Source: a virus
Taxonomy: Duplodnaviria > Heunggongvirae > Uroviricota > Caudoviricetes
DNA length: 4,612 nt
IMG/VR virus record: IMGVR_UViG_2660237951_000007
Location: 1 to 4,612 of that record
Reading direction: 5' to 3' (one strand)
Shown here in pieces: positions 1 through 4,612 of the stretch (its first letter is position 1; each line of letters begins with the position of its first letter). The notes under the pieces were generated by a model. It was given only the letters and a program-made list of their open reading frames with translations. It did not search any database and had not been told where the DNA came from. Both the position numbers and the translations under genes were made by a program.

Positions 1-182
1 GATTTGAGTTTGGGGTTTAGCGTGACAAGTTTGCGAGGGTGATCGGAGTAATCAGTGAACAGTTCGCCACCAACAATAACATCATAACCGTGGTTACGTG
101 TCGGTTGTCGCCCGTTATCCGTTCCTTCTGACCATGCCACCATATCCAGGAAAGCTTTACGCTGGGAATTTAGTGCCTGCAT
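1..182 (-). CDS. R: Endolysin, phage lambda R-type lytic transglycosylase; N-terminal 60 codons only, 3' end lies beyond the window start
   Basis: Absent from the supplied ORF track because it is truncated. Minus-strand translation from ATG at 182-180 reads MQALNSQRKAFLDMVAWSEGTDNGRQPTRNHGYDVIVGGELFTDYSDHPRKLVTLNPKLK, which matches the N-terminus of lambda R nearly residue for residue as I recall it, including the WSEGTD segment with the catalytic Glu. AGGAG (plus coords 189-193) sits 6 nt upstream of the ATG, inside the last codons of the preceding holin gene. Confidence 0.9.
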   Translation of the reverse strand, partial: MQALNSQRKAFLDMVAWSEGTDNGRQPTRNHGYDVIVGGELFTDYSDHPRKLVTLNPKLK

Positions 183-185
183 AAA

Positions 186-521
186 TTACTCCTTCGAGCT
201 ACCAAATTTGTTACCGATTACTCGCATTGCAGCCCCACGAATAGCATCGACACCGATCAGCCCCACGCCACCACCAATGGCAACAGAAAGCGATTTAGGC
301 CATCCGACATATTCAAGAGCGGATGCAAAGGTCAGCGTCAGAGCGCCACATAGCAAAATCTCGAGCGTTTTTCGCTTCCAGCCACCACCACCGCCAAAAT
401 AGGCGATGCGCAAACCAGCCATAACGATCGACATAATCACTGCACCCAGCGGTGTGTCTCCACGCCACCAGCTCTGAAACAACTCCAGCCAGTCCGGCCA
501 GGTATTTGGGTTATGAGGCAT
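186..521 (-). CDS. Class I holin, lambda S-like (about 111 aa from ATG at 521-519; the track ORF 186..617 is over-extended at its 5' end)
   Basis: Three hydrophobic segments (LGAVIMSIVMAGLRIAYF, TLEILLCGALTLTFASALEYVGW, SLSVAIGGGVGLIGVDAI) and a charged C-terminal tail. The N-terminus MPHNPN...MAGLRIAYFGGGG and the C-terminus GLIGVDAIRGAAMRVIGNK parallel lambda S (MPEKHD...AMAYLRGRYNGG and GYIGTDSIGSLIKRFAAKK, from memory). The stop TAA at 188-186 lies 3 nt before the R start, the classic S-R arrangement. The longer reading to 617 would overlap the methyltransferase stop codon and an intrinsic terminator, so the internal Met33 start is preferred. Confidence 0.75.
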   Translation of the reverse strand: MPHNPNTWPDWLELFQSWWRGDTPLGAVIMSIVMAGLRIAYFGGGGGWKRKTLEILLCGALTLTFASALEYVGWPKSLSVAIGGGVGLIGVDAIRGAAMRVIGNKFGSSKE

Positions 522-562
522 TTCGTCATCTCTCACCTCGCGATATTTGCGGGTGCTGTGTT

Positions 563-590
563 GGAAATAAAAAGGCCACGCAACGTGGCC
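563..590 (-). terminator. Rho-independent terminator directly downstream of the methyltransferase gene
   Basis: On the minus strand: GGCCACG-UUG-CGUGGCC (perfect 7-bp stem, plus coords 574-590) followed by UUUUUAUUUCC (plus 563-573). It begins 8 nt after the methyltransferase stop codon at 598-600. Confidence 0.6.
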
Positions 591-597
591 ACCAGAA

Positions 598-1650
598 TTA
601 TTTCCCCACCAGTTCACTTACCTCTTTCACCGTCTGATTAAACCGCTCTGACTCAAGTTCAACACCTAACGCCCGACGCCCCAGCGCCATTGCTGCTTTT
701 ATTGTGGAACCGGATCCCATAAAGAAATCAGCAACCAGATCACCAGGTCGACTACTGGCATTGATTATTTGCCGGAGCATATCCGCCGGTTTCTCGCACG
801 GATGTTTACCCGGGTAGAACTGAACGGGCTTATGCGTCCAGACATCGGTATAAGGCACGGAGACTGATACGGAGAAATAGCGCCGGAGAGATTTAAACTC
901 ATCCAGCAATTCAGAATATTTGCGATTCAGTGAATCATAAGATGCCACCAGCTGGTGGTGTGGTTGTTCCAGTTGTTGTTCCTGAAACTTCTCTGCCGCT
1001 ATACGGGAAAACAGTGCCTGTAACTTCCGATAGTCAGCCTCATTCGGCAACTGCCACTGACTGGCACCAAACCAGTGGGAAACCATATTTTTCTTACCTG
1101 TGGCTTCGGCAATTTGTTTTGCCGTTATACCCAGTTCGGCACGAGCATCCCTGAAATACGATATCAGCGGTGCCATTATGTGCTGTTTGAGTTCCCTTTC
1201 TTTTGCCGCATAGCCGTCACTTTTGCCGCGATATGGCCCCTGGTAATGTTCAGCAAACAGAACGCGCTCTGTGGCAGGAAAATATGCGCGCAGACTTTCT
1301 TTATTACACCCATTCCAACGTCCGGACGGCTTCGCCCAGATGATATGGTTAAGCACGTTGAAACGTTCACGCATCATGATCTCAATATCAGATGCCAGGC
1401 GATGCCCACAGAACAGGTAAAGGCTTCCGGCAGGTTTCAACACCCGCCAGAACTGGGCCAGACAGTGGTCCAGCCACTTAAGGTAATCTTCGTCCCCTTT
1501 CCACTGATTGTCCCAACCGTTAGGTTTCACCTTGAAGTAAGGCGGATCCGTAACAATAAGGTCGATGGTGTTATCTGGGAGGGTTGCGAGGTATTGCATG
1601 CAGTCAGCGTTGATAAGCTCAACACTGTTTATATTTACAGTATTTTTCAT
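598..1650 (-). CDS. DNA methyltransferase, beta-class N6-adenine/N4-cytosine family (DPPY motif; YhdJ-like), apparently orphan
   Basis: 350-aa ORF. Motif IV DPPY at residues 35-38 (plus coords 1537-1548) lies near the N-terminus and the AdoMet motif I FFMGSGST at residues 309-316 near the C-terminus; this IV-then-I order defines the beta group. N- and C-terminal blocks resemble E. coli YhdJ as I recall it (DLIVTDPPYF vs DLIFADPPYN; HPCEKPADMLRQIINASSRPGDLVADFFMGSGST vs [34 protein letters not shown]). No restriction endonuclease candidate is adjacent in the window. Confidence 0.88.
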   Translation of the reverse strand: MKNTVNINSVELINADCMQYLATLPDNTIDLIVTDPPYFKVKPNGWDNQWKGDEDYLKWLDHCLAQFWRVLKPAGSLYLFCGHRLASDIEIMMRERFNVLNHIIWAKPSGRWNGCNKESLRAYFPATERVLFAEHYQGPYRGKSDGYAAKERELKQHIMAPLISYFRDARAELGITAKQIAEATGKKNMVSHWFGASQWQLPNEADYRKLQALFSRIAAEKFQEQQLEQPHHQLVASYDSLNRKYSELLDEFKSLRRYFSVSVSVPYTDVWTHKPVQFYPGKHPCEKPADMLRQIINASSRPGDLVADFFMGSGSTIKAAMALGRRALGVELESERFNQTVKEVSELVGK

Positions 1651-1742
1651 AGATCCGTAAGCGTAACTCTGATAGGCTCACTATGCTTTTGCGCTAAAGC
1701 AGTGGGCCTTGGTTAGCTTGTGACCTGAAAGCATGAGCTAAT

Positions 1743-1773
1743 GGCTGGTTGGGTGCTACAACACCCACCAGCC
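1743..1773. repeat. Imperfect inverted repeat (12-bp arms, one bulged T, 6-nt spacer) in the intergenic region between the small ORF and the methyltransferase
   Basis: Plus strand GGCTGGTTGGGTG (1743-1755) ctacaa CACCCACCAGCC (1762-1773). The arms are reverse complements except for one extra T in the left arm. No U-tract follows on either strand, so it is not a canonical terminator. Confidence 0.55.
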
Positions 1774-1800
1774 GCCCATTTCCACAGCAGAATGCCCCCT

Positions 1801-1992
1801 TCAGTGGAGGCGTTTGTAACATCCAAACTGGTAATCTGATAACCCCGCCATAACCAGCTGCGTCAGGATGAGCTGGCATTTCTCTCGGCTTAGGTGCGTA
1901 TTCTGTGCAATTTCCCCAGCTGTCGCTGGTGAAGCGCTGAGTTCGTTAAAAACCGCTTTTGCTTCTTCTGTCATATAAGGTTGATTTTGCAT
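1801..1992 (-). CDS. Small (63 aa) winged-helix/HTH-like DNA-binding protein, family uncertain (PapI/FaeA-like pattern possible)
   Basis: ATG at 1992-1990 is preceded by AAGGGG (2005-2000) with a 7-nt spacer. The segment ATAGEIAQNTHLSREKCQLILTQLVMAGL has the helix-turn-recognition-helix spacing typical of small winged-helix regulators. The gene is co-oriented with and directly upstream of the methyltransferase gene. Confidence 0.55.
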   Translation of the reverse strand: MQNQPYMTEEAKAVFNELSASPATAGEIAQNTHLSREKCQLILTQLVMAGLSDYQFGCYKRLH

Positions 1993-2070
1993 GCCTTTTC
2001 CCCTTTTTTATCGTGTGACACACAGATAACTCTGGTTCATTTTTGCATCAAGCTTTAGATACAAAAGGCA

Positions 2071-2095
2071 TAAAAAAACCCCGCCGAGGCGAGGT
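2071..2095 (-). terminator. Promoter-proximal intrinsic terminator (tR'-like) between the Q-position gene and the cargo genes
   Basis: Minus-strand RNA CCUCGC-CUCG-GCGGGG (6-bp stem with one G-U pair and a tetraloop; plus coords 2079-2094) followed by seven U residues (plus 2072-2078). It lies about 30-55 nt downstream of the candidate promoter. Confidence 0.6.
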
Positions 2096-2103
2096 TAGAT
2101 ATA

Positions 2104-2160
2104 ATTATGACAAAATATAAAATTAGCTTCAAATATGGCTCATTTTGTTGCATTTTGCAA
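2104..2160 (-). promoter_or_regulatory. Candidate sigma70 late promoter (pR'-like) with downstream -10-like elements
   Basis: Minus-strand reading: TTGCAA (2160-2155), 17-nt spacer, CATATT (2137-2132). A second overlapping candidate is TTGAAG (2132-2127), 17-nt spacer, CATAAT (2109-2104). TATATT at 2119-2114 would fall at about +7 to +12 of the first promoter. The region is AT-rich and begins about 30 bp after the stop of the Q-position gene. Confidence 0.45.
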
Positions 2161-2190
2161 GCCCATTTGAGGGAGTTAGTGAAAGTTACC

Positions 2191-2883
2191 TCACATTTCC
2201 GCCACTTTCAGTTCTTGGTACTCTTCGTACCGTGACAAAATTTCGCTTAGTGCCTGGCTATCCATTTCAGCAAACGACGCTTTGAAAGCCGCCCAGTGGC
2301 CTGAATACACTCTGAGCCAGGTGGAACGCTCAACGCTGACCATGCGCGCCAGAGCTGCACCAGCATACTCCTGATAGGTATCGTTATTACGCGAGGCAGC
2401 AACTTCTTGCGCCGCCAGCCAGACAAGCCCTACCAGTTTTTTAGTGACGCGGCCCTGTATTTTTTTGCCGCTATGCTGACGCTGAAACTGTTCCCACACG
2501 TGCTGGCACATCAATGTCTGGTACCGGAAAGTAAGGTCATACCCATAGCAGTACCGCACCCATGCCTGCAAATGCTCACCCAGACCATTGACCGAACGAC
2601 GCCATGCTGAACAAGCGAACTCCGTATCTTTAATAGGCGGCAAAGGTCGACGACGGCTCCTTGTCTCAAGAACATAAAATGGAGTGGCCAGCGTTGTTAC
2701 AACCTTTGACCCACAACCTTCCCCACCCTCCATGACGATTTCAGGATGGTGCCGGGGGTATTTATTCTTATCTGCTGGTGGATGCTCACTGAACGCCTGC
2801 AGCTGTCCTTTTGTCGATCCTGATAAATCCGCCAGCGCGCGGCGCAGTTCAATCCGCGTATATTCCAGTTCTTGTAAATTCAT
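2191..2883 (-). CDS. Putative late-gene antiterminator at the Q position (non-lambda-Q family; assignment by synteny), 230 aa from ATG at 2883-2881
   Basis: An intact ORF directly downstream of a DUF968 gene and directly upstream of a promoter+terminator and lysis genes. This matches the ydfU-then-quuQ arrangement I recall for the E. coli K-12 Qin prophage. It shows no resemblance to lambda Q (no paired CxxC zinc-finger motifs). The track extends the ORF to a TTG at 2904; the ATG at 2883 has GGAG/GAG upstream and is preferred. Confidence 0.5.
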   Translation of the reverse strand: MNLQELEYTRIELRRALADLSGSTKGQLQAFSEHPPADKNKYPRHHPEIVMEGGEGCGSKVVTTLATPFYVLETRSRRRPLPPIKDTEFACSAWRRSVNGLGEHLQAWVRYCYGYDLTFRYQTLMCQHVWEQFQRQHSGKKIQGRVTKKLVGLVWLAAQEVAASRNNDTYQEYAGAALARMVSVERSTWLRVYSGHWAAFKASFAEMDSQALSEILSRYEEYQELKVAEM

Positions 2884-2904
2884 TATGCTCAGCGCTCCAT
2901 ACAA

Positions 2905-3966
2905 TTACGCTTTTGTTATTACGCCGATCGCCAGCGCTCGATTCATAAATCGGAATAGCAGCTCCAGCTGGGTACCGTGTTTTTTCTCGAACGCTGCAAC
3001 ATCAGCATGTAATTTGTCGTGACACTCTCTGCACAGAGGGATCACGAACAAATCGTGGGCTTTAGTGGCGGTACCGCCCATGCCGTGACCAATGACATGG
3101 TGTGGATCATCCGCTGGCCGCCGGCAACCTTCACAGGGCTGGGTTTTAGCCCACCGGGTATAGTCCTCATTCACCCACCTGCGGTGTTTTGGGCGCAACA
3201 TGAATGATTCAGGGGATTCAGGATCCGCATGCAGAGCCAGAACCTGTGGCTGGTCATAGGCCACTTCCTGATTTGTTCCATGCTTTAAATGCGCAGCCGT
3301 GACCGCAGGGGTGACCTTCTTCTGCAAAATGTTTTTTGTCGGTGGCATCGGCACAATGTCACTTTCGCGATATACGGATAAAAACGGCTCATCCGGTAAG
3401 CGAAGCGCATGCTGGGCCATCCTTTCCGTGATTGCATCAGCAATGCCTGAGTAAACGGCCCACCAGCACAATTCACCGAGGGATAGTTCACGCTCGTTGT
3501 TGTAGCCAAGCGAAGACAGGATAGAACTGATCAGCCAGTTAATGAGATTACGCCGGGCCAGTTCTGCCAGCGCCGCGGTGGTTTGCTCGCGCAGCTGGTT
3601 ATCGCAATGCCAACAGAGCAACATTGATCCAGGGGGATGTCGCATCGTTACCAGCTCATGATGGTGATAATTAGTGTGCGGGTACTGGCATTCCTTCACG
3701 TTACGCTCTAGCCAGGATTCCAACCCGGACAAACCGCCTGCTGCACGGATAACTCTCTCGTCGGTGAAGAATTCCTCGAGGGACTTATCTTCTGCCAGCG
3801 GCTGCCGGGCATCAGGGACGAGCCCCGACGGAAGCCCAGCCATGCTTTTTGGCTGAGGCTCCACCAGCACACGCCCCTGTTGAAACAAAGACATCAGTTC
3901 GCTACCCGGCTTTAACAGCACAAGCCCAAGGCGCGGAACAGTCTCGGCTGTAAACAGTCCTCTCAC
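2905..3966 (-). CDS. DUF968-family prophage protein with C-terminal HNH-like Cys/His motif (YdfU-like)
   Basis: 353-aa ORF. The C-terminal CEGCRRPADDPHHVIGHG...VIPLCRECHDKLH matches a CxxC...HH...CxxCH zinc/HNH-type motif. The GTG start at 3966-3964 overlaps the TGA of the upstream gene (GTGA) and is preceded by AAGGGG (3980-3975) with an 8-nt spacer. Family recall is from memory of lambdoid nin-region proteins. Confidence 0.75.
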   Translation of the reverse strand: MRGLFTAETVPRLGLVLLKPGSELMSLFQQGRVLVEPQPKSMAGLPSGLVPDARQPLAEDKSLEEFFTDERVIRAAGGLSGLESWLERNVKECQYPHTNYHHHELVTMRHPPGSMLLCWHCDNQLREQTTAALAELARRNLINWLISSILSSLGYNNERELSLGELCWWAVYSGIADAITERMAQHALRLPDEPFLSVYRESDIVPMPPTKNILQKKVTPAVTAAHLKHGTNQEVAYDQPQVLALHADPESPESFMLRPKHRRWVNEDYTRWAKTQPCEGCRRPADDPHHVIGHGMGGTATKAHDLFVIPLCRECHDKLHADVAAFEKKHGTQLELLFRFMNRALAIGVITKA

Positions 3967-4612
3967 GCGGCATGCCCCTTAGCGATGTGTGCCGTCCACA
4001 GGCCGCCGATCCACTCGATGCCTTTGGGTGTAAAACGTGCCTGGCTAAAGGCGTAGTTTGTTTCGCTCGTAGTGCCAGTTTTCACTTCAAACCGCCCGGC
4101 AGCAATGTGCTGGTGCCGAGGTGTCAGCACTCCACTGAGCCGGTACAAAATGCCGCTCTCAATGAGGAACAAGCGGAAATCGGTCTCTTTGGCCTGCAAC
4201 AGCTTTGCCACCTGGCGGAAAGACATTGAGCCTTTGGCAGTACAATATCGATCGACAAACTCAACTTTCGGCGCGGCAGCGGCTAACTGCTGGCTGAGTT
4301 GTTCTTTCTGCTCGGCCAGATCCGCGGCGAGACGTAATGCCTCCGGCAATGTTTGCGGGACACTTACGGCCTGGCTGTTCTCCAGCTCTTGCCAGCGATC
4401 GACAACAGCGGCGGTAAATTCTGGCGACAGCCTGGCGACGATCACCAGAGAATCACGTTTGTTAAACCAATACTCCTCGTAGGTTTGCCCGTTTTGCGGG
4501 TGTGTGTAGGGGGTGTGCGCCAACGGCGCGGTTAAAATACCAGCAGATGCAAGGCGCTCAGCTGAGCGCTTCACATCACCATGTTTGCTCTGCACCAGCC
4601 TGGCAATTTCAC
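3963..4612 (-). CDS. Rha-family phage regulatory protein with C-terminal KilA-C/ANT (antirepressor-like) domain; 5' end beyond the window
   Basis: The N-terminal part (EIARLVQSKHGDVKRSAERL ... TYEEYWFNKRDSLVIVARLSPEFTAAVVDRWQELE) follows the Rha pattern. The C-terminal part (FRQVAKLLQAKETDFRLFLIESGILYR...GRFEVKTG...FTPKGIEWIGGLW) follows the KilA-C/ANT pattern. The reading frame stays open upstream of the track's GTG at 4595 to the window edge, so the true start is outside the window. Confidence 0.8.
   Translation of the reverse strand, partial: EIARLVQSKHGDVKRSAERLASAGILTAPLAHTPYTHPQNGQTYEEYWFNKRDSLVIVARLSPEFTAAVVDRWQELENSQAVSVPQTLPEALRLAADLAEQKEQLSQQLAAAAPKVEFVDRYCTAKGSMSFRQVAKLLQAKETDFRLFLIESGILYRLSGVLTPRHQHIAAGRFEVKTGTTSETNYAFSQARFTPKGIEWIGGLWTAHIAKGHAA

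Follow-up and report, generated by a model that had tools for sequence, protein, structure and literature searches.

A stem-loop followed by a run of uridines separates a DNA methyltransferase gene from the lysis genes of a Caudoviricetes virus (IMG/VR record IMGVR_UViG_2660237951_000007), and the question it raises is whether this element is a transcription terminator that helps to keep the lysis genes silent in the lysogen. The original prediction, made from the sequence alone, held that it is: transcripts entering the "cargo" methyltransferase without antitermination would stop before the holin, polymerase modified by Q would read through, and lysis would be insulated from leaky cargo expression by the same logic as in Stx prophages. 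Here we follow up that prediction in the window, by which we mean the whole stretch of DNA analysed (4,612 nucleotides, positions 1 to 4,612 of the record), and all coordinates refer to it unless another record is named.

The genes around the hairpin

All long open reading frames of the window lie on the minus strand (Table 1), and their homologies mark the window as the part of a lambdoid prophage in which late control and lysis are encoded. [quoted passage not shown] A candidate late promoter and a strong, promoter-proximal terminator-like site follow it, both recognized by consensus matches only. On the other side of the hairpin, and on the same strand, a holin gene of the lambda family (PF05106, TIGR01594) is followed by an endolysin gene, which bears out the claim that the terminator sits upstream of lysis genes. 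The S gene of Shigella phage SfV is annotated with the same start as the window holin. No tRNA genes were found in the window.

Table 1 Features of the window, with positions in the 4,612-nt stretch, and of a further helix found in relatives
Feature	Position	Strand	Remarks
Ant/Rha antirepressor	4610..3963	minus	
DUF968/HNH protein	3966..2905	minus	phrog_96 'HNH endonuclease', E = 7e-151
Q-family antiterminator, 230 aa	2883..2191	minus	PF06323, E = 4.1e-41; phrog_304, E = 4e-72
Candidate pR' sites, TTGCAA-17-CATATT and TTGAAG-17-TGtCATAAT	2160..2104	minus	consensus matches only
tR'-like terminator, AACCUCGCCUCGGCGGGGUU then U7	2096..2067 (hairpin 2096..2077)	minus	-12.8 kcal/mol
Winged-helix-like ORF, 63 aa	1992..1801	minus	phrog_331; weak DprA_WH and TrmB matches
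Conserved 5' leader, left cassette boundary	1651..1790	minus	inherited with the methyltransferase (megablast)
Beta-class N6-adenine DNA methyltransferase, M.EcoGII family, 350 aa	598..1650	minus	PF01555, E = 1.3e-42
Spacer from methyltransferase stop codon to stem, 7 nt	597..591	minus	
Terminator hairpin, GGCCACG-UUG-CGUGGCC	590..574	minus	7-bp stem, 3-nt loop
T-tract, UUUUUAUUUCC	573..563	minus	directly 3' of the stem
Small hairpin, CACCCGC-AAAUAUC-GCG(A)GGUG	534..555	minus	3' arm is the holin Shine-Dalgarno
Lambda-family holin S, 111 aa	521..186	minus	PF05106, E = 2.6e-27; TIGR01594, E = 7e-37
Endolysin start	182	minus	matches SfV R and glycoside hydrolase family 24 annotations
Helix of ~60 nt in relatives	~30-100 nt past methyltransferase stop		L090, L092, L103, L106, L107, L110, L112, L127, L129, L003
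Helix of ~60 nt in relatives, after a terminator			L104, L109, L123, L124

Of the promoter candidates, the best match (TTGAAG-17-TGtCATAAT, 2132..2104) leaves only 8 nt between its end and the tR'-like hairpin. Should pR' instead be the other candidate (TTGCAA-17-CATATT, 2160..2132), TGtCATAAT would fall within the initially transcribed sequence, as sigma-dependent pause signals do, and termination at tR' would yield an RNA of about 55-60 nt, possibly a short RNA resembling StxS (PMC7547250). Two smaller observations concern the neighbouring genes. Genes in the DUF968/HNH position of phage phiNP (L003 4783-5850) and phage 1720a-02 (L167 32545-33534) are annotated 'antitermination protein Q', a label that looks like a mis-annotation; and an 11-bp palindrome (GTGTG-T-CACAC, 2013-2023, minus strand) lies about 20 nt upstream of the 63-aa ORF, where it is possibly an operator for the encoded protein.

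The methyltransferase gene ends in a TAA stop codon at 600..598. Its product carries DPPY at residues 35-38 and F-M-G-S-G (FxGxG) at residues 310-314, and the resulting order of N-terminal DPPY, central target-recognition domain and C-terminal FxGxG agrees with the one described in PMC5778455. Over its full length it is identical to M.EcoGII at 279 of 349 residues (80%), with the M.EcoGII sequence machine-read from the supplement of the SUPREM paper (PMC11551740), and it shares 80% identity as well with its counterpart in Stx2 phage 1720a-02, which PMC5778455 names as a close relative of M.EcoGII. Family likeness thus points to an enzyme of the M.EcoGII type that would methylate adenine non-specifically. 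M.EcoGI and M.EcoGII are reported to be silent in the lysogen, constitutive expression is reported to harm the cell, and the enzyme is probably switched on at prophage induction (PMC5778455); the lysogen silence and toxicity of the family fit late, Q-dependent expression.

A consensus scan of the minus strand between 2076 and 1651 detected no sigma-70-like promoter with at least 8 of 12 matches, a threshold that weak or non-sigma-70 promoters could escape, and every promoter candidate upstream of the methyltransferase falls at 2160..2104. Since no promoter of its own was detected, the methyltransferase gene most likely depends on Q and is expressed late, unlike a moron, which would be expressed independently. 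The "leaky cargo expression" from which lysis was said to be insulated therefore finds no footing here: the cargo's own promoter went undetected, and the M.EcoGII family is reported to be lysogen-silent (PMC5778455). The only transcripts shown to be possible start at pR' and pass tR' by leakage or by Q antitermination. With the methyltransferase read as a late gene, the targets of the terminator would be leak-through from tR' or spurious starts within the cassette, and not a leak from a cargo promoter.

Form of the hairpin and its earlier annotation

The stem (574..590, minus strand) consists of 7 perfect base pairs, of which six are G-C and one is A-U, and together with its short loop it falls within the usual form of the GC-rich hairpin of an intrinsic terminator (about 5-12 bp). 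The U-rich tract, UUUUUAUUU, begins at the first base 3' of the stem; read on the minus strand, positions 573..563 are TTTTTATTTCC, with 8 T among the first 9 and the U-run interrupted as U5-A-U3. The whole element is non-coding, is contained in the 76-nt gap between the methyltransferase and holin genes, and is co-oriented with the methyltransferase. The perfect 7-bp stem and U-tract that had been predicted with the strand left unstated are thus present at 590..563 of the minus strand. The predicted spacing stood in part: the distance of about 40 nt to the holin is 41 nt (from the terminator end at 563 to the holin ATG at 521), and the distance of 8 nt from the stop codon is 7 nt.

We evaluated the element by folding and by comparison with shuffled sequence. 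The core hairpin has a folding energy of -11.3 kcal/mol, and a 51-nt stretch containing it reaches -19.4 kcal/mol (z = -3.95), a stability equalled by none of 200 shuffles. The whole window was also shuffled 1000 times with its dinucleotide composition preserved, and both strands were scanned for sites of equal quality, defined as a perfect 7-bp stem with at least five G-C pairs, a loop of 3-8 nt and at least 7 T in 9; one shuffle contained such a site. In a scan of the window itself, 590..563 was the top-ranked terminator-like site. Stem, tract, folding and shuffles agree, and the proposal of a well-formed intrinsic terminator on the late-gene strand holds. From the Term-seq statistics in PMC12207403, the RNA 3' end would be expected at ~570..566 (minus strand), that is, ~30 nt past the methyltransferase stop codon and inside the range of 25-75 nt past the stop that is typical of E. 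coli terminators (PMC12207403). A bidirectional terminator was considered and rejected, as the plus strand reads ACCAGAAUUAUUUCC after the stem, so that an adjacent U-tract is missing, and no gene converges on the site. Because no T-tract directly follows the stem in the plus-strand reading, the terminator signal is unidirectional and belongs to the minus strand.

A stable hairpin with a U-tail could also serve the end of an RNA, either by stabilising the methyltransferase message at its 3' end or by terminating an Hfq-binding small RNA derived from its 3' UTR, for which the StxS RNA of Stx phages, made at tR', would be the model. Functional small RNAs do arise at late-region terminators of prophages (PMC7547250), and such a hairpin and tail are the usual 3' module of these RNAs; but the U-run is interrupted in the window, no conserved sequence is found upstream beyond the coding region, and no Rfam family matches significantly, which together make this role very improbable. 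In the Rfam search of the whole window nothing came near any gathering score, and the best match overlapping the hairpin, fstAT, scored 23 bits where the gathering score is 72 (E = 0.86) and was set aside as a generic resemblance to terminators.

The same element has been annotated before. In phage SfV (U82619.2, positions 35222-35253; NC_003444) a "putative rho-independent terminator" is recorded between orf48 and S, and the aligned sequence is identical to that of the window in spacer, hairpin, T-tract and flank. The neighbours correspond as well, orf48 being a methyltransferase homologue and S the holin; the element is the same, whereas the Q/DUF968/Ant module upstream of it in the window differs, with a mosaic break near 2002. 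The SfV annotation is, like ours, a prediction only. The record of phage Ayreon (MF807953) also annotates a terminator there, whose arms and T-tract are unchanged and whose loop differs. Because both records annotate it, the terminator is an ordinary feature and not a new one.

The hairpin as the 3' end of a probable mobile cassette

Megablast comparison with phage records showed that window positions 1-2002 are 94% identical to SfV and that positions 522-4612 match phages Phi06_2987, LLS and Eeyore at 90-93%, with mosaic break points at ~2002-2005 and 522-545. The best match of the whole window to a complete E. coli genome had 92.3% identity over 89% of its length. In phages that combine the methyltransferase with an unrelated holin (cdtI, mEp460, Ayreon, Phi06_2987 and LLS) the homology reaches window positions 534-522 and takes in the terminator, whereas in phages that carry the same holin and no methyltransferase (SfII, SfIV and 689R2) it ends at 541-545 and leaves the terminator outside. 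Matches in cdtI, mEp460, Ayreon and other phages cover positions 534-1790. In addition, a scan of viral contigs for the pattern GGTGGCCAC-N3-6-GTGGCCTTTTTATTTCC found at least 120 loci, and all the matches listed abut the 3' end of a methyltransferase homologue. By these comparisons the hairpin belongs to the methyltransferase cassette and not to the holin/lysis cassette, and the break points together with the viral-contig matches place it at the 3' end of a cassette at ~534-1790 that is composed, on the homology evidence, of leader, methyltransferase and terminator.

This cassette is present or absent between Q and S among related phages. In 689R2, tR' is all that separates Q from S; in SfII and SfIV the position of the methyltransferase is taken by other cargo, and a different hairpin lies about 150 nt before S. 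The cassette resembles a moron in this presence or absence between Q and S (absent in 689R2) and in ending in a factor-independent terminator. It differs from one in that no promoter of its own was recognized in the window and in that the M.EcoGII family is lysogen-silent (PMC5778455). At its other end, the leader folds with -57.1 kcal/mol (150 nt, window 1651-1800; z = -2.2). The leader is thus predicted to be strongly structured, the Shine-Dalgarno sequence of the methyltransferase is weak, and the toxic enzyme is possibly under translational control.

The right boundary of the cassette coincides with a recombination junction at the small hairpin (534..555), with homology breaking at 534-545. 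This hairpin has 7 pairs, two of which show compensatory GC<->CG swaps among 15 distinct relatives, and it is kept before at least five unrelated holin types; it probably controls holin translation and serves as a recombination linker for module exchange. Only 4 nt past this Shine-Dalgarno, an ATG at 529 begins a 30-aa ORF (529..437) in a frame other than that of the holin, whose own ATG (521) is 12 nt away from the Shine-Dalgarno. At this position, a relative from Klebsiella (L112) has two start codons in the same frame (MKM).

Conservation of the terminator and its place in the late operon

To examine conservation independently of the hairpin, 86 close relatives were gathered via the methyltransferase protein and not via the hairpin. 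A terminator was found on the sense strand in 82 of the 86 and on the antisense strand in none, while terminator-like sites occurred in 15 of 237 random 150-nt windows taken from the same loci. Both stem arms and the T-tract are kept in these 82 relatives, and the loop takes at least six forms. Fixed arms around a free loop are what selection on an RNA hairpin would be expected to leave.

Conservation of this kind also bears on the view that the repeat is not an RNA signal but acts at the level of DNA, in protein binding or recombination. The inverted repeat is perfect and adjoins the mosaic junction at 534-545, as such a site might; the T-tract that is conserved along with it is strand-asymmetric, however, its loop bases are free to vary while the arms stay complementary, the arm sequences in other genera are unrelated, and the junction proper lies downstream, at the hairpin that contains the holin Shine-Dalgarno. 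We give this view hardly any credence.

Loci from other genera extend the comparison (n = 80, with 61-92% protein identity; 75 distinct after de-duplication). Before de-duplication, a terminator-like site lay within 150 nt in 31 of the 80 loci, and on the antisense strand in 8 of the 80; 20 sites start 0-8 nt past the stop codon. After de-duplication, 22 of the 75 loci have a site that ends 0-49 nt past the stop, against ~3 per 50-nt bin elsewhere. The stems comprise at least ten unrelated sequences from Enterobacter, Trabulsiella, Salmonella, Scandinavium, Buttiauxella, Phytobacter and Photorhabdus, and in seven representative variants (mostly Escherichia, plus Enterobacter and Trabulsiella) the core stem begins 6-9 nt past the stop. 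When 18 hairpins from different genera were aligned with MAFFT, neither RNAalifold nor pair counting yielded a consensus structure, and register -1 scored equal to register 0: the stems are out of register in this alignment because the loop lengths differ. The structure is nonetheless kept despite sequence change, as seen from loop variation and positional enrichment, and the comparative data indicate selection for a terminator at the position after the methyltransferase.

There are exceptions to this trend. In Proteus and Rosenbergiella the methyltransferase runs to the holin without a terminator; in Mixta, Kluyvera, Citrobacter, Klebsiella spallanzanii and phage phiNP a different structured element replaces it; and in E. 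albertii, Stx2c phages and phage 1720a-02, tRNA genes occupy its position. Because many relatives do without the terminator, the barrier is, by this comparison, dispensable rather than essential. Such exceptions raise the question of whether the hairpin is a remnant that hitch-hikes as the cassette's own 3' end and is tolerated since Q-modified polymerase ignores it, with no insulation under selection. None of the matches listed (at least 120) stands apart from a methyltransferase, the main gate is already provided by tR', and in Proteus, Rosenbergiella, Mixta, Kluyvera and phiNP the methyltransferase still stands directly before the holin in the absence of a terminator. Against this, unrelated hairpins in different genera share an offset of 6-9 nt from the stop codon, and the variation among close relatives is confined to the loop, both of which argue for continued selection and not for neutral decay. 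We therefore consider a neutral remnant rather unlikely, though the least unlikely of the alternatives to a selected terminator.

We favour, with somewhat better than even confidence, a functional Rho-independent terminator at the 3' end of a mobile late-region cassette, forming a second barrier after tR'. Transcription from lambdoid late promoters is constitutive; in lysogens it ends at tR', and Q antiterminates it (PMC7547250). On this model, the cassette would be an insertion that separates the Q/pR'/tR' control region of an SfV-like lambdoid prophage from its lysis genes. In the lysogen, RNA polymerase from the constitutive late promoter would stop at tR'; the few unmodified polymerases that pass tR', or that start spuriously within the cassette, would be stopped at the second hairpin and U-tract, and the transcript would be released ~30 nt past the methyltransferase stop codon without reaching the holin. 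Once the prophage is induced, polymerase modified by Q would ignore both terminators and produce one late message encoding the methyltransferase and then the holin and endolysin. Termination, Q read-through and an insulating benefit are what we infer for this terminator, and late transcription would have to pass at least two terminators before the holin.

The late terminators of lambdoid phages (lambda, 82, 21 and Stx) are likewise intrinsic, on the late strand, and located between a Q-controlled promoter and the lysis genes; they stop unmodified polymerase and are ignored by Q-modified polymerase, and by analogy the same would be expected here (PMC7547250). They differ in position, in that tR' (2096..2077 in the window) is promoter-proximal whereas the window terminator lies 1.5 kb further on and belongs to an inserted cassette. 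A closer parallel is phage 1720a-02, which has the same order of Q, small ORF and M.EcoGII-type methyltransferase, and a GC hairpin with T6 before the next late genes (GGCTCGC-TTTT-GCGGGCC + T6, between argO and stx2A). It differs from the window in having three tRNA genes between methyltransferase and hairpin, and in that stx2AB and not a holin comes next. In both 1720a-02 (L167 30180-30530) and an Stx2c phage (L004), the methyltransferase is followed by tRNA-Met(CAT), tRNA-Arg, tRNA-Arg, the hairpin and stx2A. The Sakai Stx2a prophage Sp5 has no methyltransferase between Q and the tRNAs; the Term-seq figures of the Sakai paper cover the two Stx prophages (PMC7547250).

The distance from stop codon to stem may limit the strength of this barrier. 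In E. coli, terminator tR2 placed a few bp past a translated ORF is almost fully repressed by ribosomes and regains full strength beyond ~27-30 nt (PMC4824070). As the stem in the window begins only 7 nt past the stop, reduced efficiency would be expected on transcripts that are translated right behind the polymerase, and by analogy with tR2 the barrier may be leaky on well-translated transcripts and the insulation weaker than had been assumed. Of the Stx-like insulation logic of the original prediction, then, the placement of a terminator between Q/tR' and the holin survives, whereas its force is qualified by a barrier that is dispensable and possibly weakened by the 7-nt spacing (PMC4824070).

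A stronger version of this effect would make the element a ribosome-gated attenuator, in which the ribosome finishing the methyltransferase ORF blocks folding so that only untranslated or uncoupled transcripts are stopped; leakage of unmodified polymerase into the lysis genes would then be coupled to translation of the toxic methyltransferase. The repression of tR2 close to a translated ORF (PMC4824070), the recurrence of the short offset (6-9 nt) with independent hairpins in several genera, and the strongly structured leader with its weak Shine-Dalgarno are all in keeping with such gating, but the predicted 3' end at ~30 nt past the stop is normal for E. coli (PMC12207403), and compact phage genomes can have short spacing without any special explanation. 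We judge gating improbable and retain the plain second terminator as our preferred reading.

In the evolutionary sense, then, the predicted terminator is real, and its neighbour would be a late, lysogen-silent, non-specific methyltransferase. The result is of use in engineering or interpreting the late regions of lambdoid prophages, including Stx phages with the same cassette, and has little importance beyond sound annotation.

Lastly, the gap between methyltransferase and holin contains another structure in ~14 relatives, a helix of ~60 nt with the form UCAGGC-N-C-N-GGG, ~33 variable nt, and CCC-N-GCCUGA (Table 1). It is absent from the window and had no Rfam match at E <= 1. RNAalifold recovered 11 pairs in this helix, two of them with compensatory changes.
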